Origin: Candidatus Woesearchaeota archaeon
Lineage (GTDB): Archaea; Nanobdellota; Nanobdellia; SCGC-AAA011-G17; GW2011-AR20
Assembly (NCBI GenBank): GCA_018303025.1
Contig: JAGVYZ010000019.1
Location: 1 to 42,586, forward strand
Length of the DNA stretch: 42,586 nucleotides
Direction of reading: 5' to 3'
The position numbers and the translations under genes were made by a program. The notes under the pieces are model-generated. The model made no database searches. It saw only the letters and a list, made by a program, of their open reading frames with translations, and had not been told where the DNA came from. Positions 5,134-37,332 of this stretch are shown in pieces (positions within the stretch are counted from its first letter, which is position 1; every line of letters begins with the position of its first letter).

Positions 5134-8100
5134 TTATTTCTTTAAATTAATCTTAGCAAGAACTAATTGATGCATGTTTCTTAAGAATTTCATTCTGTCT
5201 TCAAATTTTAGGATATCTGTATAACCTTGTAAGACTAAATTAAATGCAAATGGAGAAGGTATTTGAGTCTGAACTTCTTTTATTTCTATTTTTCCTTTTT
5301 CAATTTCTTCTATTATTAATTTTAGATTCTGGATATCCATTAGGTCTTCTAAGACTTCTCTTTTTGCTTCTTTTAAGATTGGAAAATCTTCTGAGATTCT
5401 TCTTATTGCTGAGATTAATAACATTGAAGAAACCTGCTGTCTTCCTACTCGCTTTTTCTTTCCTTTATATTCTTTTAATATCATTAATGAGCGAACAGCA
5501 CAATGGCGAAAACGTCTCTTTAGGATTTCTGATTTTTCAATTGCTTTGTTTAAGACTTCATTTATTTCTTTGCTTTTTATTGCTTTTAATGCTTCTATTA
5601 TATTTATTTTTGATTCTGCATTTATATAGAAACCATTATCACTTATTCCCATTTCAATGTCTTTATGATAAATTCTTGAAACAGCAAAAGCTAATGCTCT
5701 TGAGAAGCAGTCATTTACTCTTCTTCCATATAATGAATGGACAATAATCTTTTTTTCATCTTCATTATTATTGTAATGCTCAATAATTATTTTAGTATTA
5801 CTTGGAACTTCATTGCAAAATAAATATTGTTCTCTAAAGTAACTATAAACTGCTTCTCCTGCATTTTTATCAACGTAAAGATATTCGTTTATGAATTTTA
5901 AGATGTCTTCCTTGCTTCTTTTTGCATTAAATTTTCCTTCCATTAATTTCCTGAATCTACCTATTTCTAATGCTAAATCAAAAGATAATGGAAGCATTTC
6001 TGAAAACCAGGAAGGAACTGTTGGAGGTCTGTCAACTGAAACTACAACTTGAGCTGTCTGACCTTTTGCGTATCTATAAATATAAGTTTGCCCGCCTAAA
6101 ACAAAAACATCACCTGGTTTTAGTCTTTCTAGGAAAGATTCATCTATTGTTCCTATAACTTGTTCTCCTAATTTAACTAAAATATTTGATTCATCTGGAA
6201 TTGTTCCAATATTAGTCATGTAAATAACTCTGGTCATTTTACCCTTTCTTCCTAGCATTTTTGTTTCAGGGTCAAACCAGACTTTTGCATAAACATTCCT
6301 GTCTTCTAATGTTGTGTATTCACCTGTTAGATAGTTTATTACATCCATGAAATCTTTTTTTTCTAATGTTTTGTAGCAATAACATCTTTTGATTAAGGCA
6401 AATAAATTATCTATGTTTATTCTATCTATACAAGTAATGCCTACTATTTGCTGGGCTAGAACATCTAGACAATTTCTTGGAATATGAATCCTATCTATTT
6501 TTCTATCTAAACTAGATTTTAAGATTACTGAACATTCGATTAAATCATCTCTGTCTAAAACAATTATTCTTCCTTTTGCTGTTTCATGAAGTTTATGGCC
6601 GGCCCGACCGCAATTATGAGTTAAAATACTCTCAACAAAAAATGAATTTGGTTCTTCTTTGAGAGTAATATTGTAAACATATCCCTCTTCTTTTATATAA
6701 TTTATAGACTCTATTTTTGTCCAAGATAAATTAAGGTCTATGTCTTTGTCATTTTTTAAATAAGCAGGAATTATTTTACTTAAAAAAATTGATTTTTTGC
6801 CCTTTAAAGTACAATTGTTTACAAAATTTAATATATGTTTTTGCCTACTAATATAAATACAGTAAATGGTATCATAATTTATTTTTTGGATTAATTTAGA
6901 TATTTTAGCTCTTTGTTCATTAAAATAATTGTGTATTCCAACTCGGTTTAATAAATTATGCAAACCCATAGCAAATTTTTTACTTGATGTAAATATTCTT
7001 ATACTATTAGAATTAACACTACCATCACCTTCAATTACACCTTCTATAAATGGAATTATTAATTCTTTAGGTAATTTATAGAGATTATTTGAGATTTCTA
7101 CTTCATGACTTTTATTTTTAGTTTTTATACCAAAAGAGAGCATTATTTCAGCTAAAAGTTTTGAACCGCAATCTAAGGTCATAAAATTATCTTTTGTTGT
7201 TAATATTTTTGGATAAAAACCAAATTTATTTAAGATTTTTTGGCATTCTTCTAATAATTTTTTATCTTTATTACCTATCTTTATTTTTAATTCTCCTGTT
7301 TTCTTATTTTTTGTTATTGAACCATCTGTAGCAACTACTCCTGTCAACCACATGAAATCTTTATCAACTTTTAATGAAATAGGAACTCTATGATGAGATT
7401 TACTTTTTAATTCAGACAAATAAGTCAAGTAATTTATTTTATTAATTTTACAAATTTCCATAATTTTTAGAAATAGGTCTAGTCTGATGCTCTTTCTTCT
7501 TCCATTTTTTCTCATATAATTTTGAAGATGGTTTTCTCTTATACCTATATTTTTAGCTAAATTCGTATATGTAATATTACTTGATTTAACATGCTGGTCT
7601 ACTACATTTCTTAGAAAGTCTTGCTTATTTTCAACATAAAATCCTTTTTGATTAATAACTTCATAAATATATGGTGTTTGATCTATAGAAAGATCAAATA
7701 TTTCGGCTACTTCTTCATCCTCTTCAAGCTCTGAAGTTTTTTTCCATCCTTCTTTGGTAAATAAAGGATGCTCTTCAGTGCATCTTATTTTAGATCCAGA
7801 ATGTAATTTTATTTCTATTAGTTCTTTATTATTATTTTTGTGATATTCTGCTATTTTGTTTTTTATAAAACCTTTTTCTTTATCAAAAGATAATATCTCA
7901 ATATCTAACTTATTTTCAACTATTTCTCCAATTTCTTTATAAGTGCCGTCTGATAATAATAATTTAGATTCATAAGGCAGGCATCTTTGTAAGGCCCTTG
8001 AAGCTGATTTTGGAGAACCTAATAAAATTACTAAATCAATGTAACCTATATCTATACCTAATTCTAAGGATGTTGAGGTTACAACTACTTTTAATTCACC

Positions 8101-9105
8101 TTTTCTTAATCTTTCTTCTAGGTTTAATCTTAATTCTTTTGATAATGAACCATGATGAGCTCCTATGTTTTCTGTGTATTTTTTTGGATATTTTTCTTTT
8201 AAGTGATGAACTACTCGCTCTGTTGCTGCTCTTGTATTGGTAAATATTAATGTTGTTTTATGGTCCTGGATTAATGAATCTATTAAAGTGTATAATTTTG
8301 AATGCATGTCATCATAAGAAATATTGATTAAATCATCTACTGGACACATTACTTTTAAGTCCATTTTTTTTAAAAACTGGACATCTATTATTTTACAGTC
8401 ATCTTCTCCTACTAAGAACTTAGCTATTTCATCTAAAGGTGAAATAGTAGCTGATAAACCAATTGTGACTGGCTTGTTATTTGCAAAATATCTTAATCTT
8501 TCTATGCTTAGATTTAAATGAACTCCTCTTTTGTTTTCTGCTAATGCATGAACTTCATCTACTATTAGATATTTTACATCTTTTAGCAATTCTCTGAATT
8601 TAATTGAAGTTATTGCTATTGCAAAGCTTTCTGGTGTACAGATTAAAATATGAGGAGCGTGCTTTAACATTTGTGATTTTTCAGAAGCTGTTGTATCTGA
8701 TGTTCTTACACCTACTTTTATGTTTAATTTTTGCTTTGAAATTGCTTCTATTTCTTTTAATGGCTGAATTAAATTTATGCTAATATCATTTGATAATGCT
8801 TTTAATGGTGAAATGTAAATACAATATACTTTGTTTTCTAAAAAATTACCTTGAGATAGATTTGTTAATTCATTTAAGATTGAAAGAAAAGCTGTTAATG
8901 TTTTACCTGAACCTGTAGGAGAACTAACTAGAACATTTTTTTGATTATGAATTAAAGGGATAGCGTATTTCTGAGGTTCTGAAAAGTTCTTGAATTTTTT
9001 AGTAAACCATTCTTTTATAGTTGGGTTTAGTATTTTGAATATTTCTTCTTCTTTGAATGGTTTTTCTTGGTAGGTTATCATTTGTAAGGGTTTAACACCC
9101 TTCAC
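5134..9105 (-). CDS. lhr: Lhr-type ATP-dependent helicase (superfamily 2) carrying an intein
   Basis: Motifs present: Walker A SSPTGSGKT, DEVH box, SAT, and motif VI split as ALQR / CGRAGH. A long C-terminal Lhr-type domain follows. The protein is 866 aa once the intein is removed. The track start is a GTG; the ATG at 9081 (MITYQEKPF) is more likely. Confidence 0.9.
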   Translation of the reverse strand: MKGVKPLQMITYQEKPFKEEEIFKILNPTIKEWFTKKFKNFSEPQKYAIPLIHNQKNVLVSSPTGSGKTLTAFLSILNELTNLSQGNFLENKVYCIYISPLKALSNDISINLIQPLKEIEAISKQKLNIKVGVRTSDTTASEKSQMLKHAPHILICTPESFAIAITSIKFRELLKDVKYLIVDEVHALAENKRGVHLNLSIERLRYFANNKPVTIGLSATISPLDEIAKFLVGEDDCKIIDVQFLKKMDLKVMCPVDDLINISYDDMHSKLYTLIDSLIQDHKTTLIFTNTRAATERVVHHLKEKYPKKYTENIGAHHGSLSKELRLNLEERLRKGELKVVVTSTSLELGIDIGYIDLVILLGSPKSASRALQRCLPYESKLLLSDGTYKEIGEIVENKLDIEILSFDKEKGFIKNKIAEYHKNNNKELIEIKLHSGSKIRCTEEHPLFTKEGWKKTSELEEDEEVAEIFDLSIDQTPYIYEVINQKGFYVENKQDFLRNVVDQHVKSSNITYTNLAKNIGIRENHLQNYMRKNGRRKSIRLDLFLKIMEICKINKINYLTYLSELKSKSHHRVPISLKVDKDFMWLTGVVATDGSITKNKKTGELKIKIGNKDKKLLEECQKILNKFGFYPKILTTKDNFMTLDCGSKLLAEIMLSFGIKTKNKSHEVEISNNLYKLPKELIIPFIEGVIEGDGSVNSNSIRIFTSSKKFAMGLHNLLNRVGIHNYFNEQRAKISKLIQKINYDTIYCIYISRQKHILNFVNNCTLKGKKSIFLSKIIPAYLKNDKDIDLNLSWTKIESINYIKEEGYVYNITLKEEPNSFFVESILTHNCGRAGHKLHETAKGRIIVLDRDDLIECSVILKSSLDRKIDRIHIPRNCLDVLAQQIVGITCIDRINIDNLFALIKRCYCYKTLEKKDFMDVINYLTGEYTTLEDRNVYAKVWFDPETKMLGRKGKMTRVIYMTNIGTIPDESNILVKLGEQVIGTIDESFLERLKPGDVFVLGGQTYIYRYAKGQTAQVVVSVDRPPTVPSWFSEMLPLSFDLALEIGRFRKLMEGKFNAKRSKEDILKFINEYLYVDKNAGEAVYSYFREQYLFCNEVPSNTKIIIEHYNNNEDEKKIIVHSLYGRRVNDCFSRALAFAVSRIYHKDIEMGISDNGFYINAESKINIIEALKAIKSKEINEVLNKAIEKSEILKRRFRHCAVRSLMILKEYKGKKKRVGRQQVSSMLLISAIRRISEDFPILKEAKREVLEDLMDIQNLKLIIEEIEKGKIEIKEVQTQIPSPFAFNLVLQGYTDILKFEDRMKFLRNMHQLVLAKINLKK
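6613..7983 (-). mobile_element. 457-aa intein with LAGLIDADG homing endonuclease, inserted in helicase motif VI
   Basis: It begins at Cys (CLPYESKLLLSDG, codon 7981-7983) and ends THN (Asn 6613-6615), followed by the +1 Cys of CGRAGH. Block B is CTEEHP. LAGLIDADG motifs are LTGVVATDGSI and IEGVIEGDGSV. Excision restores QRCGRAGH. Confidence 0.9.
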
Positions 9106-9389: not shown

Positions 9390-10613
9390 ATGAATCGGGA
9401 AATACATATAACTGATTTAATCCCATTTTTGAAAAATAGTCACGTTAAATTAGAATTAACTTTCTTGAAATGTTTATTGATTGATGCTTCTAAGACAGAG
9501 TTACCCCACTATAATCTTGATTTTTGTAATTATCTGGGTTGTAAAATCAATAAGAATAATAAAAAATCTTCAAATATTTATCAATGGTTAAAAGGAGAAA
9601 GAACTATTCCTTTTAAGAAATTGATAAAAATTGTTTCTTTAGCTAAAAATTATAAGTGGGATGATGTTGAAAAAAATTTAATTTCTATTAAATCAGGTAT
9701 TAAAAAAGGCGAAATATATCCCAAATTTCCATTTTATTTAGACGAAAAATTTGGATGTATAATCGGGCATATTCTGGGCGATGGTTCGATTTCAAGAACA
9801 TATGAAATTTCTTTTAATAATACTAATTCTGATTTATTAAAAGAATTTATTAATAATATGTATTTAATTTTTGGAATTTATCCAAGAATCTGGATAAAAA
9901 GGTGTAGTATAAACTTTACTGAAAAACATAAATGGGAAAAGAGAATTTATGACTTGGACAATATTCCTAAACATTATATGGCATCTTTATTTTATCCTGC
10001 AATTTGTGGAAAATTTTTACTTGGAATTTATGGCAATTTTGCTTATAGTAAATATAAAAAAATTACTAAACGAATATTTAACAGTAATAGCGAGTTTAAA
10101 CGAAGTTTAATTAGATCTTTTTATGATGATGAATCATCAGTTAATGAAAAACAGAAATTTATTCGTATTTTTCAAGATAATAAAAAACTATTATCAGACA
10201 TTAAAAAAATCTTGACAGATTTAAATATTTGTTCTAATGAAGTTAGATACTATATTAAACAAAATAAAAAAAGATATTATTTTAATATTTCAGGATATTT
10301 TATTCTTTTAGACTATTTTAACAAAATTGGATTTACTTCAAAATCAAAATCTATAAACTTAATTAGATTATTAAACAAAATATCTTCTAAACAACATTTT
10401 AGATTAAGAGTTGGTGAAATGAAAAATGTAATAATGCAATTTTTAAATACTGGACCTAAAGATACTATGTTTCTTATTTTACAATTAAGAAAGAAATATA
10501 CGTTTATGCGTTTAAATGAAGAAACTGTTAGAAAACATTTGCATAACTTACAAGATAAAGGAAAAATAGTTTCCCAAATGCAAGGTCATATTTATATCTG
10601 GAAAATTAGATAA
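9390..10613 (+). CDS. free-standing LAGLIDADG-family protein with flanking HTH-like regions
   Basis: Two LAGLIDADG motifs are present (IIGHILGDGSI and LIRSFYDDESSV). There are no Hint splicing blocks: no N-terminal Cys/Ser block and no terminal HN. The C-terminal VRKHLHNLQDKGKIV looks like a winged helix. Confidence 0.75.
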   Translation: MNREIHITDLIPFLKNSHVKLELTFLKCLLIDASKTELPHYNLDFCNYLGCKINKNNKKSSNIYQWLKGERTIPFKKLIKIVSLAKNYKWDDVEKNLISIKSGIKKGEIYPKFPFYLDEKFGCIIGHILGDGSISRTYEISFNNTNSDLLKEFINNMYLIFGIYPRIWIKRCSINFTEKHKWEKRIYDLDNIPKHYMASLFYPAICGKFLLGIYGNFAYSKYKKITKRIFNSNSEFKRSLIRSFYDDESSVNEKQKFIRIFQDNKKLLSDIKKILTDLNICSNEVRYYIKQNKKRYYFNISGYFILLDYFNKIGFTSKSKSINLIRLLNKISSKQHFRLRVGEMKNVIMQFLNTGPKDTMFLILQLRKKYTFMRLNEETVRKHLHNLQDKGKIVSQMQGHIYIWKIR

Positions 10614-16717: not shown

Positions 16718-17314
16718 TTATTGTCTTGTTGAATCTGTTTGTGTAGAATCTGGTGTTGCTTCCCTTCTGAAAGGTGGGATATAAGCTGTTCTTCCTTCTA
16801 CAAAATTTCTCCAATCTGAACTATCTGCTTGCGCTAATTCTAATTGACGGTCTTGAGTTGCTTTTACTCCTCTTAATCCTTCTTGATAACTTTGAGCTAA
16901 TGAGTCTATTCTAACGTTTGCTGCATTTGTTCTTCTTCTGTTAGCTATGTTTGAGGCTAATGCAGCTCTTGCTTCGGCAGCAAGATTTGTATTTACTCTG
17001 TCTGCTAAACCATAAGCTGAGTTTGCTTTTGTATTTGCTTTATTTGCTAAGTCATAAGTTCTAGCGATACCTCTTTGAGCTGCTCTATCTTGTGCATTTA
17101 ATCTGTTAATCTGATTTATTTGAGCATTGTCAATTTCTCTTTGAGTTGGAACTCTTGGAGCTACCATTGCTGAATCTGCTGTATTTTTAGTTGCAGTTTG
17201 TTCTTCAGCACCCCATGTAATAGGATTGTACCAATGTTTTTTACAGCCTTCTGCTGTTGCTACAACTGAAAGAGTTGCTAATGTATATAAACCGGTTCTA
17301 ATATAATTATTCAT
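16718..17314 (-). CDS. Ala/Arg/Asn/Gln-rich coiled-coil protein with an N-terminal signal/anchor
   Basis: The N-terminal hydrophobic segment LYTLATLSVVATAEGC is followed by low-complexity helical sequence. The gene looks richer in G+C than flanking genes. Confidence 0.6.
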   Translation of the reverse strand: MNNYIRTGLYTLATLSVVATAEGCKKHWYNPITWGAEEQTATKNTADSAMVAPRVPTQREIDNAQINQINRLNAQDRAAQRGIARTYDLANKANTKANSAYGLADRVNTNLAAEARAALASNIANRRRTNAANVRIDSLAQSYQEGLRGVKATQDRQLELAQADSSDWRNFVEGRTAYIPPFRREATPDSTQTDSTRQ

Positions 17315-17387: not shown

Positions 17388-18650
17388 TCATTTGTTTTTG
17401 CCTATTCTTTCCAAATCTCTTAATGCTTCTTCTTCTGTCAATTCTCTTTGAGGAGTATGAGGTTGTTGTCGAGAAGGTGTTCTTCTAGCTGGTGCAACTA
17501 TTCTATTTTGTCGAGACTGCTGTAATCTTGTTCTGTTTTCTCTTGCTCTTATCTCTTCTGCTTTTCTTCTTGCAGTTTCTTCTGCTTCTCTTCTTGCCAT
17601 TGAATTTATTCTTTGATTTAATGTATTTATTGAATCCTGGTAAGTTTTTACAGTTAAAGAAGCATTAGTTGCTGTTCTTGCTCTTCTTAATGCTGTTCTA
17701 TACCTGCTTGTATCTACCCTCAATGCTTCTAATTCAATATTACGAGCAGATAAATCAAACCAATACCTTTTTGCTGATGCAGAAGCATTGGATGCTAATG
17801 TTCTTGCTTGTAATAATCTTGAATCAGAATTATGAATATATACTCCTAAAATTGTATTTCGTCTTTGTAAACTTCTATTTGCTGCTGCTAAATTTGTTGT
17901 ATCTGCTATAAGTTGGACATTCTGCTGTTGTAATGTTGTATTTTCTCTTAATCTATTTTGATATCCTACTTCTCTTGCTTCTAATGATTTTATTTTTTCG
18001 CTTTGTATTATTACTGCAGCAGCTGAAGCATTTGCGATAGATATTGCACCATATAATCTTAAGTTTGTTAAATGTTCTAAAGTTGCTAAAACAGTATTTT
18101 GCCTTCTTAAATCTCTTATATTTTTTCTATAATCAGTTGTATCTCTTCTTAATGCGGTTAGTTCTGATGAACTATTCTTTGATAATTCTTCATTTCTTCC
18201 TTCTAAAAAAAGGTTATATTGTTCTAAGGTTCTAATGTTTTGTGAAGAAAGTGCTAATAAAAGATATTGCCACAAATTATCTCTATCTGCTCTTTCTCTT
18301 AATTCTTTATCTCTTGCATTAACTTCTGTTAATGTATCTAAACTATCTTCTAATGCATTTTTTCTTTCATTTGTTCTTTCATTTAAGCTATATGCTATTT
18401 CTGCTGCTTTTTTATCTGTGTAATCTTCTACTTTTTTAAGACATCCTTTTGCATAACCAATTGTAAGTGCTAATGTTGCTACGGCTGTAAAAGTTATTAT
18501 TCTTCTTCCATATTTTCTAAGAAAAGATTTATCTTGAGGATTAGACTGAGGTTCGGCTGGAGCGAATGGAGCTATTGGTGTGCTATCTAATGGTCGTGCT
18601 TTTTGAGGTGATTCATCTTTGGGTGTTTGTTGTTTCATTTTTCTTACCAT
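17388..18650 (-). CDS. membrane-anchored coiled-coil protein with internal ~80-aa repeats
   Basis: Pro/Gln-rich N-terminus, one TM (IITFTAVATLALTIGYA), then helical sequence. It contains repeated blocks of the form DTTxYR..RRQNTVL...ANASAAA / DTTNL..RRNTIL...SNASASA / DTSRYR..TNASL. Confidence 0.6.
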   Translation of the reverse strand: MVRKMKQQTPKDESPQKARPLDSTPIAPFAPAEPQSNPQDKSFLRKYGRRIITFTAVATLALTIGYAKGCLKKVEDYTDKKAAEIAYSLNERTNERKNALEDSLDTLTEVNARDKELRERADRDNLWQYLLLALSSQNIRTLEQYNLFLEGRNEELSKNSSSELTALRRDTTDYRKNIRDLRRQNTVLATLEHLTNLRLYGAISIANASAAAVIIQSEKIKSLEAREVGYQNRLRENTTLQQQNVQLIADTTNLAAANRSLQRRNTILGVYIHNSDSRLLQARTLASNASASAKRYWFDLSARNIELEALRVDTSRYRTALRRARTATNASLTVKTYQDSINTLNQRINSMARREAEETARRKAEEIRARENRTRLQQSRQNRIVAPARRTPSRQQPHTPQRELTEEEALRDLERIGKNK

Positions 18651-20005: not shown

Positions 20006-20215
20006 GGGGATATAGCACAACCCGGTTAATGCGGTCGGCTCCAGAAGTAAGGGTTTAACACCCTTCACGAACCCGTGAACGAACCTGTTAAAAACAGATT
20101 CATTGATGAAACCGATTGATTCAGGTTCAAATGAAGCTTTTCTTCGCGAAGAAAACCTTCAGGAAAAGAAGGCGAGATGAAGAAAACAAAAGCTCTGAAA
20201 GTCCTGATATCCCCA
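20006..20215 (+). tRNA. tRNA-Trp: tRNA-Trp (anticodon CCA) with two introns (about 20045-20110 and about 20132-20201)
   Basis: Exons 20006-20044, 20111-20132 and 20203-20215 assemble into a 74-nt cloverleaf. Acceptor GGGGATA/TATCCCC; D arm GCAC/ATGC; anticodon stem GTCGG/CCGAT; loop CTCCAGA; T arm TCAGG-TTCAAAT-CCTGA; discriminator A. No CCA is encoded. Confidence 0.8.
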
Positions 20216-20345
20216 GTACTTTTTCTTTTTGAAAAAGAAAACCTACGCTAAAAGAAAACATCTTGGAAAAAACCTACGCTAAAAGAAACATTTAGCAAGA
20301 AAAATCTTATGAGCAAAAAGAAAAAATTAAAGCGAAACGTTTAAA
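20216..20345. repeat. purine-rich repeat leader (AAAGAAAAC units; 21-nt direct repeat AACCTACGCTAAAAGAAA(A)CA x2)
   Basis: The direct repeats lie at 20240-20260 and 20271-20290. aaaagaaaacatcttggaaaaa (20250-20271) closely matches 27422-27444 upstream of the 853-aa surface-protein gene. Confidence 0.7.
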
Positions 20346-20373
20346 AATGTTAACTTCTTAGTGAATAAAACAA

Positions 20374-21786
20374 ATGATTATTTATAGGGGGTTATTTCAA
20401 ATGAAAACATCAAATTTAATAGGTACTGGAGTTCTTTTAGCAGCATTAGCAACAGGTGCAAAAGCTGTAGAAAATCCAAATAGATTTTTAGGAAGAGAAA
20501 ATATTCCTGCAACTTATGTTGGAATGCAAAATGGAAGAGCTGTTTTTGAAGTTAATGATGGTGATTCTACTGCATTTGGTAGATTTTCTAGAATGTTTGA
20601 AACTAAAAATGATATTTTTGAATCTGATTTTGATGGTTTAAGATTTACAAGAACAACTGTAGATTCTGCAACTGGAAATGTAACTTTAAGACCAGTAAGA
20701 GAATTAGTTGATTGCAGAGAAGAAGGAAATCCATTATATGGTTTAAATGGAATTAATCCTGATAGCGGAATTGTTGTTAGAGGATTTAAAGCAGATAATA
20801 GTCCTGGTGAAATTGTTATAACTGTAAATGAATTAGGCGAAGATATAGAAACTTGGGGTGCTAATGCTATTGTTCGATATGCAGCAAATAAAGCTGGTCT
20901 TAAAAAAGGTTTAACATTTATGACTATAAACGGAAGAAATTCTAGATTCATTGAAAACTTAGTACCTTGTTTAGGAGACATTGTAGAATTTGGCGGAGAG
21001 CATGAAAATAGTGGAGCATTTGTTCCATTAACTACTTATAATGTTCATAGGGGATTTAGAGGAGGTACAACTGTATCTGCCTTGCATCCTGTAAGAGATT
21101 CTAGGATGAAGATTAGTGTTGGTCCTAGAGGAAATCCATATTTTACTGGAACTCAAAGATTTAGTGTTGATCCTAGCAAATTAAATGATGGATTACAATT
21201 GAGAATAGAAGATTATGAATGTGATTTGGTTGCAAGAGCATTAAATGCTACTCAATTTAATGCTGGTTATGGAAGATTAAATGGACACAATGGTGTTGAA
21301 GTTGGTGCTATGGTAGACTTGCCTAATAATTTTGTAATAGGTGGAAGTGTTTACAATAGTGTAAGAGATCCAACTACAATTTCTACTTCAGAAAGAACTG
21401 CAGGACAATTTAGAGTAGTGGAAACTGATTCAACAAATGAAAAAATAAGAGCTGTTGAATTTGCCTTAGGAAGAAAAATAACTCTTGGAGATTTAGTTGT
21501 AACACCTAGTATAACAGCAATGCAGGAACAAGTATCTACTTTTATTAATGAAGGACAGCAACTTTATGGAACTGGTGGATTAAAGGAAGATAAAGTAACT
21601 CCTCGGGATACAAGAATGACTGATTATAGTGTTGGTGGAAATGTAAATGTGCAAATTCCATTAGGTAATAGATTTGGAATTTACGGAAATGCTGGTGTAA
21701 GCAATGTTATGAATCCAAAACCAACATTTAGAGCTGGTGTTTATGTTGGAGCTGGCAGAATTTATGATGGAGTTGGTAAACAATGA
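20374..21786 (+). CDS. secreted protein with a beta-barrel-like C-terminal region
   Basis: Signal peptide MKTSNLIGTGVLLAALATGAKA (likely start 20401). The last ~170 aa show Gly/aromatic-rich alternating hydrophobic strands (YSVGGNVNVQIPL, FGIYGNAGVSNV, FRAGVYVGAG). The gene looks richer in G+C than the window average. Confidence 0.65.
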   Translation: MIIYRGLFQMKTSNLIGTGVLLAALATGAKAVENPNRFLGRENIPATYVGMQNGRAVFEVNDGDSTAFGRFSRMFETKNDIFESDFDGLRFTRTTVDSATGNVTLRPVRELVDCREEGNPLYGLNGINPDSGIVVRGFKADNSPGEIVITVNELGEDIETWGANAIVRYAANKAGLKKGLTFMTINGRNSRFIENLVPCLGDIVEFGGEHENSGAFVPLTTYNVHRGFRGGTTVSALHPVRDSRMKISVGPRGNPYFTGTQRFSVDPSKLNDGLQLRIEDYECDLVARALNATQFNAGYGRLNGHNGVEVGAMVDLPNNFVIGGSVYNSVRDPTTISTSERTAGQFRVVETDSTNEKIRAVEFALGRKITLGDLVVTPSITAMQEQVSTFINEGQQLYGTGGLKEDKVTPRDTRMTDYSVGGNVNVQIPLGNRFGIYGNAGVSNVMNPKPTFRAGVYVGAGRIYDGVGKQ

Positions 21787-24095
21787 AAAAATTAATTTTA
21801 TTTTTTATTTTATTAGCATTTGTTTTACCAAGTGCTAATGCTTTAGTCATAGGAAGTCAATGGGTTAATGATGGAACAAGCATAAGTGCAAACAAAGGCG
21901 AAATAGTTTCTTTTACTTATTCTGTTTTCCCAACAATGAATAGATTTACTGATAGTTATAATATTATGATTACTTTAACTAAAGAAGATGGAACTTTCAT
22001 AAGAGAATTAGCTAATACTAATATTAATGGCGGAGATTATAGTGATACACAAAATTTTGCTGTTAACAATGCTGGAAATTATTCTGTAAACATTTTTGTT
22101 AGATATACAACTGGAAGGGATGAAAGAGACACTTCTAATTTAAATTTAAAAGTTTTAGACTCAACTACTGGAAACAATGCACCTGTTATAACAAGCACTG
22201 CTGTTACAACTGCAACTGTAAATACTCTTTATACTTATGATGTTGATGCAAGTGATGCTGATGGTGATACATTAAGTTATAGTTTAACTAATAATCCTAT
22301 TGGGATGAACATAAATTCTAATAGTGGTTTAATTTCATGGACACCCCAGAATATTGGGAGTTATGATGTAAATGTAAAAGTTTCTGATAATAAAAATGGA
22401 GTAGATGAACAATTATTTGTTATTGTTGTTTCAAGTGTTATTCCTGGAAACAATGCACCTGTTATTATAAGCAATCCTGTTTTAACTGGAACTGTAAATA
22501 CTCTTTATACTTATGATGTTGATGCTACTGATGCTGATGGTGATACATTAACTTATTCATTAGTTAGTTCTCCAAATTGGATGCAAATAAATAATGTGAA
22601 TGGATTGATTAGCGGAACTCCAACTCAAACTGGAAATTATGATGTAAATGTAAAAGTTTCTGATAATAAAGGCGGGGTAGATGAACAATCATTTGTTATT
22701 ATTGTTTCAAGTGTTATTCCTGGAAACAATGCACCTGTTATAACAAGTAATCCTGTTTTAACTGGAACTGTAAATACTCTTTATACTTATGATGTTGATG
22801 CTACTGATGCTGATAATGATGTTTTAAGTTATAGTTTAATAAATAAACCAGCTAATATGAATATAAATTCTAATAGTGGTTTAATTTCATGGACACCTAA
22901 TAATATAGGGAATTATAATGTAAATGTAAAAGTTTCTGATAATAAAGGCGGGGTAGATGAACAATCATTTGTTATTATTGTTTCAAGTGTTATTCCTGGA
23001 AACAATGCACCTTATTTTACAAATTTACCTGCTACTGTTACTGCATATAAAAATGTTTTATTTAATTATGATGTAAATGCAATTGATGCTGATGGTGATA
23101 CATTAACTTATTCATTAGTTAGTTCTCCTGATAATGTAGTCATGAACATGAATACAGGTTTAATTACATGGACACCAAATGAGGTAGGAAATTATAATAT
23201 TCAAGTCAGGGTTTCTGACAACAATGGTGGAAGTGCGGTAAGCACATTAACTGTAAATGTCAATATTATTAATCCTAATGATTTAAATGCACAAATTATA
23301 AATCCTAATGAAGGAGATATTTATTATCAAAATACTCCTGTTTTATTAGAAGGAATATCTAATCCAGTTGCTACAAATTATGAATGGAAAATATTTCAGG
23401 GAAATAGTTTAATACGAACAATAACTGGCAATATTATTGGCGGAACAATAAGCACTTTTTATAATTTTGCAGAAACAGGAATTTATCAAATATTATTTGG
23501 GGTTTCTGTTGATGATGTAAAAAGTCCATATGATAATGTTAATATTGAGGTTGTTCAACAACCTGATGTTTCAATAAAAGTAATCAGTTATGTTAACAAT
23601 GCATTAACTGTTGAAGGTGTTGTAATTGATTCAAATTTAATTGAAAAATATTTATGGGACTTTGAAGGAAGAGAAAGAGAAGGAAAAATAGTAAGCATTG
23701 AATTTACACCTGATAAGAAAAGCGTATTTGTCGTATTAACTGCTGTAGACAAATATGGGAATGATTTCATTGCTACTAAATTAATTGATTTAAGTCAATT
23801 TGATGATGGAAAAGAAACATCACAAGTTCATAAAATAAGATTGAATGACATGACTTTTATCAAATCAAATGATGCAGTGCATGTTTTTGTAAATGTAAGA
23901 AATGAAGGAAATAACGACGAGAAAGTTAGCTTGAGAGTTAATATTGGAAGATTTGTCCAGTATGATTCATTTACATTAAGCAAAAATGATGTATTACAAA
24001 GACATTTTGTCTTTAAAGAAACTGATGATCAACATGTAATAAACGCAGAAGCAACTGTAGGGAGTAAAAAGTATACTATCTACAAAGTGATGTAG
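21783..24095 (+). CDS. secreted adhesin-like protein with four cadherin-like (He_PIG/dystroglycan-type) repeats plus a CARDB-like C-terminal domain
   Basis: Signal peptide MKKLILFFILLAFVLPSANA. Four 92-aa repeats follow the pattern NAPVITS..NTLYTYDVDA.DADGDTL.YSL....GLISWTP...G.Y.VNVKVSDNKGG. The start overlaps the upstream stop (ATGA). No C-terminal TM segment. Confidence 0.8.
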   Translation: MKKLILFFILLAFVLPSANALVIGSQWVNDGTSISANKGEIVSFTYSVFPTMNRFTDSYNIMITLTKEDGTFIRELANTNINGGDYSDTQNFAVNNAGNYSVNIFVRYTTGRDERDTSNLNLKVLDSTTGNNAPVITSTAVTTATVNTLYTYDVDASDADGDTLSYSLTNNPIGMNINSNSGLISWTPQNIGSYDVNVKVSDNKNGVDEQLFVIVVSSVIPGNNAPVIISNPVLTGTVNTLYTYDVDATDADGDTLTYSLVSSPNWMQINNVNGLISGTPTQTGNYDVNVKVSDNKGGVDEQSFVIIVSSVIPGNNAPVITSNPVLTGTVNTLYTYDVDATDADNDVLSYSLINKPANMNINSNSGLISWTPNNIGNYNVNVKVSDNKGGVDEQSFVIIVSSVIPGNNAPYFTNLPATVTAYKNVLFNYDVNAIDADGDTLTYSLVSSPDNVVMNMNTGLITWTPNEVGNYNIQVRVSDNNGGSAVSTLTVNVNIINPNDLNAQIINPNEGDIYYQNTPVLLEGISNPVATNYEWKIFQGNSLIRTITGNIIGGTISTFYNFAETGIYQILFGVSVDDVKSPYDNVNIEVVQQPDVSIKVISYVNNALTVEGVVIDSNLIEKYLWDFEGREREGKIVSIEFTPDKKSVFVVLTAVDKYGNDFIATKLIDLSQFDDGKETSQVHKIRLNDMTFIKSNDAVHVFVNVRNEGNNDEKVSLRVNIGRFVQYDSFTLSKNDVLQRHFVFKETDDQHVINAEATVGSKKYTIYKVM
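22170..23273 (+). repeat. 4 x 276-bp in-frame tandem repeat inside the adhesin gene
   Basis: Repeat starts (ggaaacaatgcacct) are at 22170, 22446, 22722 and 22998. Flanks of repeats 2 and 3 are nearly identical at DNA level. The middles alternate in an ABAB pattern: R1 resembles R3 and R2 resembles R4. Confidence 0.9.
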
Positions 24096-27552: not shown

Positions 27553-30114
27553 ATGAATGGTAAATATATAATAATATTAATGATTTTTGCAATGCTTGCT
27601 ATAAACGTAAATGCTGATTTTACTTTAAGTTCTGATACTTTAGAACAGACTGTATGTCAGGGTAATACTGTTTTGTTCACAACTAAAGTTTTAGGTTCTG
27701 GATTATTTTCTGTTAACCAAGAAGGAAATGGAGCTTCATTTTCTACAACTGTTCCTTTAAATGCCCAGTCAAATGGAGTATTTTACACTTATATGACACC
27801 TTCTTCTTTAACTTTGCCTGGAAATTATAACTTAAATGTTGTTGTTAATGATGGTGCAACTGTAAAAAAAGCAAATTATGCATTAAATGTGCAGGATTGC
27901 CATGCAATGCAAATTAAAGCTGAGACTGTAAAGGATATTTGCGAATGCGGGAGTGAAAGAATTGGCTTTAAGATTAAGAATAATGGGAAGTTTACTGAAA
28001 CCTATACATTAAGCTTAACTGGCTCTGGAAAAGATATTGCTAAACTAGCTTCTGATTCAGTTAGCTTGGATGCTAATGAAGAAAAAGAAGTTACTGTTAA
28101 TGTTGATGCTCCATGCAATCTGGAAAGTGCTTTTGATTTAACATTAAATGTTGTTTCCAAGAATAGCGATGCTAGTTCTAGTTTTACTACTTTAATTAAT
28201 GTAAACAAATGCTATGGCTTTGATGCTAATCTTGAAAAAAGCTATTTGAGTTTATGCGAGAAAGAAGATACTTCCTTAAAATTAGACATTACTAATTTAG
28301 GTGTTTATGATAATAATTTCAAAATTAAAGTTGATGGTGTAAACTGGATTAATGTTGAGAAGAATGAAGTTTCTATTCTACAAAAAGGAAAAGAGAGTGT
28401 TAACTTGCTTATTAAACCTGGCTCTAATATTGGAAACTTTACTGCTAAAGTAAAAATAAGCACCAAAGACAATAATATTGTAAAAGAGGGCGAGTTAAAA
28501 GTTGATATTAGAAAATGCTATGGTGTTAATTTAAATGTTGATTCTGAATTTAAAGTTTGCAATGCATTTGTTTCTTCAAAAGAGATTGAAGTTAAAAATC
28601 CAGGTGAATTTGCTGAAACTTTTATGATTAAGGGCGGTTATGACTGGATAGAAGAAGAGAATATAACTCTACAAAGCAAAGAGACTAAAAAAGTATTATT
28701 GAGATTAAATCCTGAAAATCTAAAAGAAGGAGATTATAGAACTCAAATTACTGTTACTAATGTCAAAGATGATAATTTGAAAGAAGAAAAAACAGTAACA
28801 ATAACTGTTGTTGACAAAATCAATTGCTATGGTGTTAGTTTGACTCTTGATAAAAATATTGATGTCAAAAGAGATTCTTCAAAATTAGTCACTGTTACTT
28901 TGAAAAATAATGGTTTTGAAGATGGAAAATATTTACTTGAATTAAATGGAAACACTAATTTTGTACAGGTAAATCCTTCTATTTTAGAAATAGAACATGG
29001 AAAATCAGCTAATACTTATTTATACATTGCACCTTCAAAATCAGTTGAAGAAGGTGTTTATGAGGTAATATTGAAAGTTAAATTAGAGGATAATACTTTA
29101 ATTAAAGAAGAAAGACTTAATATTAAAGTTGGAACAGAAAGCAAAGTTGTTTCTTCTAATACAACTTCTTTTTGGAGTAAAATAACTGGATGGTTTACTT
29201 TTGAAGTTAAAAATGAAACCAAAGTACAACCTGTAAAAACAGTTAAATTAAATGCTAATGGTGTAAAGGTTAAAGCTAATACTTCATTTATTATTGGAAA
29301 TGAAACACATTCATTTGAGATTGTTGAAATGGATAATGAGAGTGCTACAATTGTCTTTAAATCTGATCCTGTTGTAGTTTCTTTAGATAATAATGAGACT
29401 ATTAAAGTTGATTTAAATCAAGATGGGAAAGAGGATGTTTCTGTAACTTATCTTAATAATGAGTTTTTAATTAAACAAATTGCTGAAGAAAAAGAATCTT
29501 TTTTTAACCAGAGAAATTTGATAATAATAGGGGTAATTATTGGTGTTTTAATATTAGGAATATTGCTTTACTTCATGATTGCTTCTGATAGTGAAGAAGA
29601 AACAAAAGAAGAAAAGTTTGAACTTGAGGAAGAGGAAGAAGGCGGTTATAGGATAGGAAGATGGATATTGGGATTGATTGCAATTGGTGTTTTAGCTTAT
29701 TATTTCAAAGATTCTATTAATTGGAAGGATTATCTACTTGCTTATAAAAACTATATTATAATTGGCTTAATCTGCTTAATTGGAATTGTTATATTAGCTA
29801 AATACTGGAAACAAATTAATAATTTTTTAGATGATTTAGACGAGGAAGAGAAGAAGCCTCTTGATAAAAGCCTTAAAAGAACAAGTTCTTCTAGCAGAAG
29901 CCTTTTAGAAAAAGCCTTCAGGGAAAAGCAAAGCTTAACACTTCAGGGAAAAGAGAAAGAAAAGAAAAGACTTATTGTTAGGCATACTAAAGAAGTTGAA
30001 AAAAAACATGCTGTGAAAAAAGAGGTTATTGTAAAAAAACCTGTTAATGAAGAGAAAAAAAGAGGAAGACCTAAGAAAGTTGAAGAGAATACAGAAGATA
30101 ATATTGAAGAATGA
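27553..30114 (+). CDS. large S-layer/CARDB-like surface protein with three TM segments and a Lys-rich cytoplasmic tail bearing an AT-hook
   Basis: Signal peptide. Repeated ~100-aa beta domains are each introduced by a C(Y/H)G/A motif (VQDCHAM, VNKCYGF, IRKCYGV, KINCYGV). TM segments begin near residue 655. The tail contains KKRGRPKK (RGRP at 30061-30072). Confidence 0.8.
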   Translation: MNGKYIIILMIFAMLAINVNADFTLSSDTLEQTVCQGNTVLFTTKVLGSGLFSVNQEGNGASFSTTVPLNAQSNGVFYTYMTPSSLTLPGNYNLNVVVNDGATVKKANYALNVQDCHAMQIKAETVKDICECGSERIGFKIKNNGKFTETYTLSLTGSGKDIAKLASDSVSLDANEEKEVTVNVDAPCNLESAFDLTLNVVSKNSDASSSFTTLINVNKCYGFDANLEKSYLSLCEKEDTSLKLDITNLGVYDNNFKIKVDGVNWINVEKNEVSILQKGKESVNLLIKPGSNIGNFTAKVKISTKDNNIVKEGELKVDIRKCYGVNLNVDSEFKVCNAFVSSKEIEVKNPGEFAETFMIKGGYDWIEEENITLQSKETKKVLLRLNPENLKEGDYRTQITVTNVKDDNLKEEKTVTITVVDKINCYGVSLTLDKNIDVKRDSSKLVTVTLKNNGFEDGKYLLELNGNTNFVQVNPSILEIEHGKSANTYLYIAPSKSVEEGVYEVILKVKLEDNTLIKEERLNIKVGTESKVVSSNTTSFWSKITGWFTFEVKNETKVQPVKTVKLNANGVKVKANTSFIIGNETHSFEIVEMDNESATIVFKSDPVVVSLDNNETIKVDLNQDGKEDVSVTYLNNEFLIKQIAEEKESFFNQRNLIIIGVIIGVLILGILLYFMIASDSEEETKEEKFELEEEEEGGYRIGRWILGLIAIGVLAYYFKDSINWKDYLLAYKNYIIIGLICLIGIVILAKYWKQINNFLDDLDEEEKKPLDKSLKRTSSSSRSLLEKAFREKQSLTLQGKEKEKKRLIVRHTKEVEKKHAVKKEVIVKKPVNEEKKRGRPKKVEENTEDNIEE

Positions 30115-30440
30115 GAGTTGAAATACATCAACATAATAGTGAAGTGGTTTTAACAGGTGTTCCATTTTGGTGTACACCAAGAAGAGTTGCAGATACTTTA
30201 GCAAGATTGTCTGGTGTTGCTTGCAGAATTGATAGAAGTGAAGAAGGTGATTATAATGTTTCCAGGCAAGATTCTAATGGCGGTCCTATTTTTAATGTAA
30301 ACTCAATGGGACATGGAGAAATAATTGTTTGGTATAAGGGATTAAGTTCTTATGCTTCAGTCGAAGTAGTTCGGGACTTGCCTGGAGAAATAAGAAACCC
30401 CTTTTATGGATTTTTAAAATCTTTTAGGCAAGGACTATAA
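30111..30440 (+). CDS. hypothetical cytosolic protein (109 aa), translationally coupled to the surface protein
   Basis: Its ATG overlaps the upstream TGA (ATGA at 30111-30114). Unrecognised. It looks richer in G+C than its surroundings. Confidence 0.5.
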   Translation: MRVEIHQHNSEVVLTGVPFWCTPRRVADTLARLSGVACRIDRSEEGDYNVSRQDSNGGPIFNVNSMGHGEIIVWYKGLSSYASVEVVRDLPGEIRNPFYGFLKSFRQGL

Positions 30441-31360: not shown

Positions 31361-31729
31361 TTATTGCCTTGCTTCTACAGGCAAATTTGCATTTATCCTT
31401 GTTCTTGCACTATCTGGAGTAGAATTATCAAATGGCAAGACATATTCTCCATTTTGAAATATTTCTGCAAATGTGCACCTTGTTGGATAAACCCTGACAT
31501 TTATTTTATCTTGAGTTAATGTACTTGCATTTGGCAAGAATGTCAAATCATAACCCTTGTTTGTTGAATCAATTTGGCCTGGACATGTATATTTGAATAC
31601 ATCCAAACGAGGATTGCCTCTTACTATTTGGGAATAAACAGAAGAAATATCTGATGCTATGCTTGCAGATGCTAAACTAACTGCGAGTGTTAAACTTGTT
31701 GCGAATTTTGCAAATGTTCTCATTATCAA
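31361..31729 (-). CDS. small secreted 2-Cys protein, paralog of 31784..32191
   Basis: Signal peptide MRTFAKFATSLTLAVSLASASIA (likely start at the third codon). It shares the MRTFAK leader, two Cys and the layout of the neighbouring gene. Confidence 0.6.
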   Translation of the reverse strand: MIMRTFAKFATSLTLAVSLASASIASDISSVYSQIVRGNPRLDVFKYTCPGQIDSTNKGYDLTFLPNASTLTQDKINVRVYPTRCTFAEIFQNGEYVLPFDNSTPDSARTRINANLPVEARQ

Positions 31730-31783: not shown

Positions 31784-32191
31784 TTATTGATGGTTTCTTG
31801 CTGCTTGTAATTCTGAATCGAATCTTGTTTTAACTGAATCTGGAAAATTTCTAGGAGATTGGTTTAATGGATACCAAGCACCATTAACATAAAAAGTAAG
31901 AGTGTCTGTGCAAATACTGACTGGCGGATGATAATCAGCTTGGACTGTAATTTGAGTAACAGAAGTATCAGAAGGTGTAAATGTTAAACTATGCACTGTA
32001 TATCCAATTTGATTTAATCCTTGTCTGCAATTAGCCTTATACTCTGTTATTTTTAATTCTCCTCTTTTTAGTTGAGAGAAAACTTCTGAAACAGAAGGTC
32101 TTGCTTGTTCTTGTTGTCTGGAAGCGACTCGTGCTGCTGTTAAACTTGCAATTATAGAAAAAATTGCAGCTATTTTTGCAAATGTTCTCAT
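31784..32191 (-). CDS. small secreted 2-Cys protein, paralog of 31361..31729
   Basis: Signal peptide MRTFAKIAAIFSIIASLTAARVA. Arranged in tandem with its paralog. Confidence 0.6.
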   Translation of the reverse strand: MRTFAKIAAIFSIIASLTAARVASRQQEQARPSVSEVFSQLKRGELKITEYKANCRQGLNQIGYTVHSLTFTPSDTSVTQITVQADYHPPVSICTDTLTFYVNGAWYPLNQSPRNFPDSVKTRFDSELQAARNHQ

Positions 32192-34186: not shown

Positions 34187-34819
34187 TCATTGACTTTGGT
34201 CTGTCCAGAATTCAAAGAGCGTATAATCAATTTTTTCTAAGTTTAATATATTTATTATTTCATTGGAATTTTCCAAAGGAACCATAAATGATAAAGGAGT
34301 TAATTGTTTTCCCTTTATTTTTTCCAATATACCTTCTGAAGAGTAAGATTTTTCTTTTCTTCCAAACAAGATTCTTATTATCTTATTTCTTTTTGCTATA
34401 TTTTTTATTGGTTTTATGTTAAAATAAGTATATCCTTTTGTTTTTTCAGGCAATGCTTTATATTTTCCATAAAGCAAAATTCCAGAACTAATGATGCTTC
34501 TTTTTAACTTCCACTTGTCCAAATTTCCAACCTCTATATTTATTGGATTTTTTATGCCCTTTAAAGAGAATATTTCATAGAATTTTGAATTGTAATAAGG
34601 TTTCAATTCATTTTTTATCTTGTTTTTTAATTCTCTTTCTTCATTTTTATTTTTTACATCAAAGAATAAGTCTATATCACTTTCTAATGTTGCTTCATTT
34701 CTTGCTGCTGAACCAAATAATATTATTTCATTTATGTTTATTTCTTCCAGCTTAGGCAGGATAAATGCTATAAATGATTCTGCGTAAGCTATTAACAATT
34801 TATAATTCGAATTTTTCAT
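34187..34819 (-). CDS. nucleotidyltransferase-domain protein (~205-aa paralog family, copy 2; no partner gene)
   Basis: LFGSAARNEATLESDIDLFFDV, GILLYGKYK, and the conserved C-terminal block ILFGR...GILEKIKGKQL....VPLE. Confidence 0.8.
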   Translation of the reverse strand: MKNSNYKLLIAYAESFIAFILPKLEEININEIILFGSAARNEATLESDIDLFFDVKNKNEERELKNKIKNELKPYYNSKFYEIFSLKGIKNPINIEVGNLDKWKLKRSIISSGILLYGKYKALPEKTKGYTYFNIKPIKNIAKRNKIIRILFGRKEKSYSSEGILEKIKGKQLTPLSFMVPLENSNEIINILNLEKIDYTLFEFWTDQSQ

Positions 34820-36580: not shown

Positions 36581-36703
36581 ATCACAGAAAAGTATTTAAA
36601 TTTATTTAACAGGTTATGCTATGGAAAAGAAAAGAAAGCAGATATTGTAAATTCTGCAATAAAAAATTTATTTGAACTGAAAAAACTGGAGGAAGAAGAA
36701 TGA
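36581..36703 (+). pseudogene. C-terminal remnant of an NTase partner (HEPN-like) gene
   Basis: A 40-codon open stretch with no start codon reads EKYLNLFNRLCYGKEKKADIVNSAIKNLFELKKLEEEE. It parallels the C-terminus of 2785..3183 (EEKRNILCYGKPQKLELIQEVIENLNKLKELF). Its TGA overlaps the NTase ATG (ATGA). Confidence 0.6.
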
Positions 36704-37332
36704 AAGAGATAATTGCATATGTTTATGACTTTTTGTCTATGGTTTTTGAAGATGAAGTTAAGGAAAAAATAAAGGAAGTTATTTTATTTGGCTCTGTTGC
36801 AAAAGGCACTTTTGACAAAAAAAGCGATATTGACTTATTTTTTAATATTAAAGAAAAGAAAGATGAGAAAGAGATAGAAGAGAAACTGAAAAGTATATTA
36901 AAAAGTTTTGAAGTAAAATCAGAAAAAACATGGGCTTTAAAAAATATTAAACTTCCTATAAGCTTTATTGCTGGAAATTTAGAAGATAAAACCTGGAAGA
37001 ACATAAAGGAGGAGATTATAAGCTCTGGAATTTTGCTTTATGGAGAATACAAAGAAAATCCTGAAGGTTTAAATCATAATTATTTATTTTATTATTCATT
37101 AAGTAATTTGCATAGAAAGAATAAAATGAAATTTATAAGAATAATGTTTGGTTATAGTTTAAAAAAAGGCAGTAGTAATTATGAGCAAGAAGGTCTTTTG
37201 AAACAAATCAAGGGCTTAAAATTAGGTTCAAATGCAATTTTAATTCCCTCTTATGAGATTCTTAAAATAAAAAAAGTATTTAATGATTTTAAGATTAATT
37301 ATAAGATTATTGAAGCATGGCTGAGATTATAA
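36700..37332 (+). CDS. nucleotidyltransferase-domain protein (~205-aa paralog family, copy 3)
   Basis: LFGSVAKGTFDKKSDIDLFFNI, GILLYGEYK, and the C-terminal block IMFGY...GLLKQIKGLKLGSNAILIP. Confidence 0.8.
   Translation: MKEIIAYVYDFLSMVFEDEVKEKIKEVILFGSVAKGTFDKKSDIDLFFNIKEKKDEKEIEEKLKSILKSFEVKSEKTWALKNIKLPISFIAGNLEDKTWKNIKEEIISSGILLYGEYKENPEGLNHNYLFYYSLSNLHRKNKMKFIRIMFGYSLKKGSSNYEQEGLLKQIKGLKLGSNAILIPSYEILKIKKVFNDFKINYKIIEAWLRL

Follow-up and report, generated by a model that had tools for sequence, protein, structure and literature searches.

In this study, we analysed a 42,586-nucleotide stretch of DNA from a Candidatus Woesearchaeota archaeon (assembly GCA_018303025.1, contig JAGVYZ010000019.1, positions 1 to 42,586; hereafter the window) and characterized computationally a gene encoding a secreted two-domain protein. 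The mechanically derived open reading frame (ORF) at 20374–21786 (+) is a real gene, the target gene of this study, which probably starts at ATG 20401 (MKTSNL...) and encodes 461 amino acids. The gene limits (20401..21786, +) were assigned from the ORF list, the start of the database copy P0001, the full-length homologue P0002 and codon use. A Shine-Dalgarno-like AGGGGG at 20386–20391 lies 10 nt 5' of ATG 20401, and P0001 (461 aa), which was called by gene callers, begins at M10 of the ORF, that is, at the same ATG. The C-terminal 178 residues (C-domain; 21250..21783, +) are predicted, on the basis of AlphaFold, Foldseek, Pfam and the faces of the strands, to form an eight-stranded antiparallel β-barrel resembling OmpX and OmpA.

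An earlier note on this DNA, made from the letters alone, had described the ORF with a clear signal peptide, and both hold. The Sec signal peptide MKTSNLIGTGVLLAALATGAKA (20401..20466, +), read from the sequence by inspection with cleavage after AKA, is of the classical AxA type (MKTSNLIGTGVLLAALATGAKA/VENP), and its hydrophobic region and AxA site are kept in P0002 (VRA/AENP). It is followed by an orphan N-terminal domain (N-domain) of about 235–260 aa with mixed alpha/beta character (20467..21174, +), which has no match in Pfam, NCBIfam or the PDB sequences even at an E value of 10. An inter-domain linker with an 89-nt polymorphic patch, delimited by comparison of alleles (21176..21264, +), leads to the C-domain. 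All six segments quoted in the earlier note were found in the translation. Its description of this region as rich in aromatics is overstated: the last 170 residues contain 13.5% Gly, 12.4% Val, 8.8% Thr, 7.6% Asn and about 7% aromatic residues, with no Trp. As also remarked there, the protein does not end in an aromatic residue; its terminus is ...GRIYDGVGKQ (...VNFKLGGRQ in P0002), with a conserved Y/F seven residues before the end. The target sequence contains no C-terminal hydrophobic helix or archaeal sorting motif (transmembrane helix, PGF-CTERM/archaeosortase class), unlike the neighbouring 432-aa and 853-aa surface proteins, which do carry a C-terminal hydrophobic helix.

The protein family is very small. 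An exhaustive HMMER search over 1.84 billion representative proteins found two clusters only, the target's own and P0002, which is 36–38% identical over its full length and has the same architecture. No additional member turned up in word-seeded searches, in GTDB genomes or among metagenome contigs, and no relative was found in eight syntenic Woesearchaeota loci. In PDB sequence searches, neither the full protein nor the C-domain or its profile had a meaningful match, and NCBIfam and PHROGs searches returned nothing; a word-seeded homology search with the C-domain profile was also empty and did not return the query itself either. Between the two lineages, housekeeping genes are 78–90% identical, transmembrane-anchored surface proteins 72–74%, the He_PIG adhesin encoded directly downstream 55%, and the target 36%. 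The value of 36%, compared with 78–90% for the housekeeping neighbours, indicates exceptionally fast evolution of the target.

Several results point to a barrel in the C-domain. It matches the Pfam family OMP_b-brl (PF13505) with an E value of 1.2e-4 and 22.7 bits (0.0039 and 17.8 bits for the full protein). None of ten reversed, shuffled or parity-preserving shuffled C-domains matches this family, indicating that residue order matters, and not composition or pattern alone. The AlphaFold model of the C-domain is all-beta, with strands of up to 29 residues, a predicted local distance difference test score (pLDDT) of 72.4 and a predicted template-modelling score (pTM) of 0.57; a full-length prediction from the two-sequence alignment reached a pLDDT of 30 and was unusable. 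When the C-domain model was compared with the PDB using Foldseek, the matches included OmpX (E 6e-5, template-modelling (TM) scores 0.50/0.58), Ail (E 1.3e-4) and the transmembrane domain of OmpA (OmpA-TM; TM scores 0.60/0.62), and further NspA, OprF-N and TtoA. The top 50 PDB matches are all outer-membrane barrels or pores, with no lipocalins, avidins or sandwiches among them, and the top matches in the viral library BFVD are phage proteins annotated as 'outer membrane protein beta-barrel'. The likeness of the C-terminal ~170 residues to a small bacterial outer-membrane β-barrel, pointed out in the earlier note, is thus corroborated by an order-specific, sub-threshold Pfam match and by structural matches to OmpX, Ail, OmpA-TM, NspA and OprF-N. 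Structure prediction gave no soluble β-sandwich or jelly-roll, and no ordinary S-layer homologues were found.

The predicted topology, derived from the model with DSSP, is an eight-stranded up-down meander with the N and C termini on the same side, in which the DSSP strands 28–38 and 43–51 (domain numbering) act as a single kinked long strand. In the numbering of the 470-residue ORF, the strands of the membrane body span about residues 294–302, 305–316, 320–330, 359–371, 374–384, 418–430, 434–443 and 451–464, and long protruding hairpins are formed by about residues 335–358 and 385–417. Three turns of two to three residues (PNN, GD and GNR) lie on the side of the termini in the model, with the two long hairpins opposite. 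The short turns are flanked by paired large hydrophobic residues (L/F, L/L and L/F), which are kept in P0002, and all insertions and deletions between the target and P0002 fall within predicted turns or loops. Judged from sequence, a clean hydrophobic face with five or more alternating residues is present in six of the eight strands of both homologues, and the other face is rich in Gly, Ser, Asn and Tyr, as in the interiors of outer-membrane proteins (OMPs). Aromatic residues (F, F, F and Y) would line the turn-side rim of the predicted barrel. In the model, the C-domain is therefore predicted to be a barrel of the OmpX/OmpA type.

A second barrel gene is present in the same genome. By extending the contig leftwards via the first complete protein of the window, we found a 207-aa OMP_b-brl protein, designated OMP207 (L016:12291–12914 (-), equivalent to L019:10001–10624 (+)), about 1.5–2.1 kb to the left of window position 1. 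It matches OMP_b-brl with an E value of 7.1e-12 and 46.3 bits (cutoff 28.7) over model positions 2–171 of 175, and has a signal peptide ending in ...KAKA and the C-terminus ...GGGLRLGF, a canonical OMP end. Its codon use is native (G+C content at third codon positions (GC3) of 0.16; Arg codons AGR only), and it adjoins genes for NUDIX, phosphoribosyl pyrophosphate synthase, archaeal-type PTH2, leucyl-tRNA synthetase and MutS on at least 24 contigs. The NCBI record (MBS3140961.1) reads 'outer membrane beta-barrel protein [Candidatus Woesearchaeota archaeon]', and a tblastn search of OMP207 against plasmids gave no match. The linkage between OMP207 and the window crosses an 11-nt tandem repeat, (ATTTAATTATT)n, at which most assemblies of this population, like the window itself, stop. 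This repeat, (TAATAATTAAA)n / (ATTTAATTATT)n, occupies window positions 1–70 and positions ~11380–11590 of L016; one scaffold spans it with 100 N and has the same repeat on both flanks, and Logan unitigs break there. As it belongs to a bacterial family, OMP207 is more likely of bacterial ancestry, long since ameliorated. Its presence in the genome raises the prior for a barrel-bearing membrane in the organism, and the hint at an unusual envelope in the earlier note gains weight from this canonical gene just outside the window.

The barrel reading of the C-domain has to be weighed against a number of observations that speak against it. The Pfam score of 22.7 bits is below the PF13505 gathering cutoff of 28.7 bits, so the family threshold is not reached, and the C-domain of P0002 has no OMP_b-brl match. 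The alternation of hydrophobic and polar residues is by itself not distinctive: an amphipathic-strand scan found about two segments per 100 aa alike in the C-domain, the neighbouring immunoglobulin (Ig)-type surface proteins and OmpA/OmpX. Two of the five AlphaFold models converge and three fail, at an alignment depth of 2, and pLDDT falls to 53–60 in the last two strands, which makes barrel closure the least certain feature of the model, and to 39 in the tail. The putative strands 1 and 4 have weak hydrophobic faces with a conserved Arg in each. Comparison of the C-domain profile with E. coli OmpX and OmpA-TM and with OMP207 using hhalign gave probabilities of 0.18–0.65, which are not significant and, with single-sequence templates, uninformative. 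The C-terminal aromatic β-signal is absent, the two homologues ending in GKQ and GRQ. The metatranscriptomes of the same studies have no words in common with the target gene and give no evidence of its expression. We know of no outer membrane or barrel assembly machinery (BAM) in Woesearchaeota. The search for BamA/Omp85 suggested in the earlier note came out negative, with no Omp85, POTRA, Skp or Lol match in the gene calls from about 75 kb of the genome, a partial coverage that is not decisive.

Some of these observations would also be expected if the C-domain were a soluble or wall-associated β module, such as an open meander sheet, a soluble barrel or an S-layer/adhesin docking domain, and its OMP-like prediction an artefact of Gly-rich amphipathic hairpins. 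An alternation density equal to that of the neighbouring Ig-type proteins, a Pfam score that is sub-threshold in the target and missing in P0002, three failed AlphaFold models with low-confidence closing strands, and profile comparisons without significance are all consistent with such a module, as is the usual lack of OMPs in archaea (PMC2703889). However, a soluble module does not readily account for top structural matches that are outer-membrane barrels throughout, with no lipocalins, avidins or sandwiches, or for the failure of all ten shuffled and reversed controls to reproduce the Pfam match. The polar face, moreover, is rich in Gly, Ser and Asn rather than in Lys, Glu and Asp, which would be unusual for a solvent-exposed surface, and the same genome encodes a genuine OMP_b-brl protein. 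We regard this module as the main rival to the membrane barrel, a real possibility that falls well short of an even chance.

The target gene is native to an archaeal genome. The window has a GC content of about 27% and contains archaeal markers, namely the Lhr helicase and SMC (each with a LAGLIDADG intein), XPD/Rad3, TrmB and Lrp/AsnC regulators. Directly upstream of the target lies a gene for tRNA-Trp(CCA) with two introns (20006–20215, +), one of ~66 nt after position 37/38 and one of ~69 nt in the T-loop. It was missed by ARAGORN and Rfam, and ARAGORN accepts the intron-removed version. A diverged copy of the locus (L003) keeps the tRNA-Trp exons, with compensatory changes in the anticodon stem, and has longer introns (106 and 114 nt). 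A highly conserved 226-aa upstream neighbour matches eight metagenome-assembled genomes, seven of them labelled Woesearchaeota, with 39–49% identity. The archaeal context seen in the earlier note is therefore confirmed by Lhr, SMC, XPD, TrmB, Lrp, the intron-bearing tRNA-Trp and the Woesearchaeota matches of the neighbour. The locus is present in many groundwater metagenomes.

Codon use of the target is also native, with a GC3 of 0.09 and AGA/AGG accounting for 31 of 33 Arg codons, as in the rest of the genome. A putative archaeal promoter (TFB recognition element (BRE)/TATA), CGAAACG TTTAAAAA (20333..20347, +), assigned from the archaeal promoter consensus, may serve the operon formed by the target and the adhesin gene. 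The block AACGAAACGTTTAAAAAT-TTAACTT is shared by the upstream regions of the window and of the diverged copy L003, and its flanks are not conserved. The target gene occupies the same position in independent assemblies, and the sister lineage is syntenic over ~20 kb, including the overlap of the target and adhesin genes. Because of its native codon use, the conserved promoter block and its position in independent assemblies and in the syntenic sister lineage, we consider the target a native archaeal gene; recent bacterial horizontal transfer and contamination were rejected because GC3 is native, independent assemblies are syntenic and the sequence flanking the target on either side is archaeal. 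Nor is the bacterial acquisition considered in the earlier note supported at the sequence level, since no homologue is detectable behind it: the search of 1.84 billion representatives found two archaeal lineages only, the codons are native, and the BRE/TATA-like promoter is archaeal and conserved.

Three further features of this region are recorded here. The second intron of the tRNA-Trp has a weak match to a C/D-box small RNA (sR17, E 0.37), reminiscent of the guide RNAs in archaeal tRNA-Trp introns. Between the tRNA-Trp and the target promoter, positions 20237–20290 contain two direct copies of ~19 nt (AAACCTACGCTAAAAGAAA). The intein-bearing Lhr and SMC genes, each with a LAGLIDADG homing endonuclease, are located at 5134–9105 (-) and 37424–42379 (+), respectively, and a free-standing LAGLIDADG ORF at 9390–10613 (+).

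Comparison of the window with the L001 and L002 alleles placed all 17 nucleotide differences in the 89-nt linker patch (21176–21264), where they cause seven amino-acid changes and leave six codons synonymously altered. Outside the patch, the rest of the target gene and 1.8 kb upstream of it are identical. Both linker alleles occur together in single groundwater samples, as an assembly-graph bubble at 21146–21294 in runs X9 and X13. From these sequences, the patch looks like a recombination tract. Hypermutation by a diversity-generating retroelement was considered and ruled out, since the changes are not A-specific and six codons are synonymous.

The gene downstream of the target encodes the He_PIG/Big_9 adhesin-like secreted protein (21783..24095, +; Pfam He_PIG E 3e-56). 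A signal peptide precedes its four He_PIG/Big_9 Ig repeats, and a C-terminal transmembrane anchor is lacking. The ATGA overlap with the target (at 21783) and the missing anchor had both been noted correctly before, and the sister lineage keeps the overlap as well as the partner. The adhesin is 770 aa long in the window, 536 aa in L001 and 665 aa in L025, presumably owing to variation in Ig-repeat copy number. The earlier note had gone on to suggest that the adhesin is displayed through the target protein. This is implausible, as the predicted ~170-aa, eight-stranded barrel is of a size class without a translocation pore and is not of the 12-stranded autotransporter type, and the adhesin has a signal peptide of its own. 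Docking to the N-domain is therefore a plausible form of coupling between the two proteins.

The pairing with an adhesin also bears on the possibility that the barrel is host-directed, i.e., released at a contact site and inserted into the membrane of a partner cell, where it would anchor the episymbiont or plant the N-domain and the adhesin on the host. Divergence to 36% against 78–90% for housekeeping genes, together with a patch that is polymorphic within a population, is typical of interaction proteins, and the operon partner is an adhesin of variable copy number. In vitro, small eight-stranded barrels can fold into bilayers unaided by BAM. Obligate ectosymbiosis is typical of DPANN archaea (PMC11291902, PMC11329633). 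Against this stand a locus with no delivery-system-like gene and a C-terminal Phe signal in OMP207 that indicates assembly from the periplasmic side. Insertion into a lipopolysaccharide leaflet from outside is, moreover, unfavourable. We consider a host-directed barrel very unlikely, all points taken together.

Two Arg-rich proteins are encoded on the opposite strand to the left of the tRNA-Trp. One (16718..17314, -), recognized by composition and position, is an Ala-rich coiled-coil protein with an N-terminal anchor and Cys (...ATAEGC) and the terminus ...TRQ. Its R/(R+K) ratio is 0.77, and a positional homologue of 191 aa in L003 and L025 ends in ...RRQ. The other (17388..18650, -) has, judging from translation and composition, one transmembrane helix and an extracytoplasmic coiled coil of ~330 aa. 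Neither protein has a family match. The conserved position of the first next to the locus makes it a possible envelope partner of the target, and the second may be another, its association being conjectural.

These two genes and the target belong to a set of six orphan ORFs that prefer Arg over Lys: 16718–17314 (-), 17388–18650 (-), 20401–21786 (+), 30111–30440 (+), 31361–31729 (-) and 31784–32191 (-). Their R/(R+K) ratios are 0.64–0.83, compared with about 0.1–0.5 elsewhere, despite very low GC3. Five of the six have an N-terminal signal or anchor sequence, and they are the fastest-evolving genes of the region. A C-terminal [K/R/H]Q is present in four of the six and in 1 of 34 other ORFs; two L003 homologues retain this terminus, the a129 orthologue lacks it, and it does not occur in other Woesearchaeota loci. 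The idea of a universal C-terminal ...Q sorting tag is weakened by the sister orthologue of the small secreted paralogues, which ends in ...KELK, and by the absence of such a set from other Woesearchaeota. Elsewhere in the window, nucleotidyltransferase genes (NTP_transf_2/Polbeta, MntA-like) are located at 635–1450 (-), 2181–3183 (-), 34187–34819 (-) and 36700–37332 (+), which is suggestive of multiple toxin-antitoxin or defence modules of the MNT-HEPN type.

The secreted and anchored Arg-rich orphan proteins around the locus are in keeping with a further explanation, in which the lineage is diderm and OMP207 and the target are its own outer-membrane proteins. The target would then be an OmpA/OmpM-like tether whose N-domain binds parts of the inner envelope, e.g., the adjacent coiled-coil proteins. 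Two OMP-type barrels with native codons reside in one genome, one of them (OMP207) retaining the canonical C-terminal Phe signal, and the order of N-domain, linker and C-terminal barrel parallels that of bacterial tethers. Among archaea, ARMAN and Altiarchaeum are examples reported to be diderm (PMC8871954). However, a family found in two lineages only, evolving extremely fast and without relatives in eight other Woesearchaeota loci, is unlike a core envelope component. The ~75 kb of genome with no match to Omp85/BamA, Skp or Lol also argue against a diderm lineage. On this evidence, it is quite unlikely that the lineage is diderm with the target as such a tether.

We propose, with confidence and doubt in about equal measure, that the target is an envelope protein of two domains, held in a bilayer outside the cytoplasmic membrane by a C-terminal barrel like those of OmpX and OmpA. 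On this reading, it is a lineage-restricted, fast-evolving envelope protein of a groundwater Woesearchaeote. After Sec export and removal of the signal peptide, the mature protein would consist of the orphan N-domain joined by a short polymorphic linker to the C-domain, which is all-beta and rich in Gly. For the last ~170 residues, the predicted fold is an eight-stranded up-down barrel of the OmpX/OmpA type, whose outward belt of aliphatic and aromatic residues would embed it in a bilayer beyond the cytoplasmic membrane. This bilayer may belong to the archaeon, as a layer resembling an outer membrane, or may be that of a partner cell; a barrel seated in the archaeon's cytoplasmic membrane, on its outer face, is less likely. 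The barrel probably serves as a passive anchor rather than a pore; it would keep the N-domain in the cis-side space and present the protruding hairpins on the trans side. Other envelope components may bind to the N-domain there, the most plausible candidate being the He_PIG adhesin of the same operon, which has no anchor, and OMP207 may sit in the same membrane as the target. A broader proposal is that the lineage builds a second bilayer resembling an outer membrane, or a lasting membrane junction with a partner that is diderm, populated by OMP207 and the two-domain target and accompanied by lineage-specific, fast-evolving Arg-rich envelope proteins, several of which share the C-terminal [K/R/H]Q; we regard this as unlikely. 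Overall, the observation in the earlier note stands and its interpretation survives in part: the likeness to an outer-membrane barrel is kept, and bacterial acquisition and display through the barrel are not supported.

Possession of OMP-type transmembrane β-barrels is regarded as a mark of diderm bacteria and of the organelles descended from them. Archaea serve as OMP-free negative controls in the benchmarking of predictors (PMC2703889). An OMP-like barrel in an archaeon comes as a surprise, since such proteins are assumed to be of no use there. The barrel type itself is already known; what is new is the native archaeal fusion of a predicted barrel of this type to an orphan domain, and a canonical OMP in the same genome. 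In the literature, we found no report of OMP-type barrels in Woesearchaeota. Two OMP-type proteins native to one DPANN genome, one canonical and one of a novel two-domain form, provide a concrete, testable case for one of two ideas about some DPANN archaea, namely that they possess an outer-membrane-like compartment or that they use barrels where they meet partner cells. Either option, if true, would bear on the attachment of episymbionts and their exchange of material with hosts, as well as on whether small barrels can do without BAM in their assembly and on the frequency with which second membranes evolved among the Archaea. If OMP207 and the target do populate such a bilayer, they would be the first natively encoded functional OMP-type barrels of Archaea, and their existence would imply an unknown route of barrel insertion or BAM-independent assembly. 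Should the barrel prediction prove wrong, what remains is a rapidly evolving and polymorphic operon for surface proteins in an uncultured symbiont, which would be of modest interest only.

Among known systems, the C-domain most resembles the OmpX/Ail/OmpA-TM class, represented in the Pfam clan MBB by PF13505 (OMP_b-brl), PF06316 (Ail_Lom) and PF01389 (OmpA_membrane). The target shares with it the Sec signal peptide and, in the prediction, the size of ~170 aa, the eight-stranded up-down meander, the termini and short turns on one side with the hairpins on the other (an OmpX-like 'flag'), and a Gly-rich inward and a hydrophobic outward face. In contrast to this class, the target is archaeal, sub-threshold in Pfam and poor in aromatics, with no Trp and no C-terminal aromatic residue; an orphan domain precedes its predicted barrel, and it has no detectable bacterial homologue. 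OMP207 is similar to the target in its native codons in the same genome, Sec signal peptide, Gly-rich composition and small barrel size. It differs in being a bona fide PF13505 member (46 bits) with a single domain and an ...LRLGF end, and its sequence has no significant similarity to the C-domain of the target.

Type Va autotransporters also combine an N-terminal extracytoplasmic part with a C-terminal β-barrel and are associated with adhesion. Their barrels have 12 strands and ~250–300 aa, with a linker that fills the pore, whereas the target barrel is predicted to have eight strands in ~170 aa, has no match to PF03797, and reaches Foldseek TM scores of 0.18–0.31 with NalP and BrkA. To our knowledge, the OmpX/OmpA size class with eight strands has no translocation pore. 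A β-pore-forming toxin was likewise considered and rejected, as there is no family match, the Foldseek TM scores with RCD-1 and OlyA/PlyB are 0.17–0.20, and four consecutive hairpins suit a monomeric barrel better.

Outer-membrane tethers, such as OmpA, OprF, OmpM/SlpA and the Treponema Tpr/MOSP proteins, differ from the target in that no OmpA_C, SLH or MOSP domain was detected in it and its N-domain is an orphan; as far as we know, archaea also have no peptidoglycan for a tether to bind. They nevertheless share with the proposed architecture of the target the combination of a barrel with a soluble domain on the cis (periplasmic) side, and in Tpr/MOSP, BamA and LptD, this soluble domain is N-terminal, as it is in the target.

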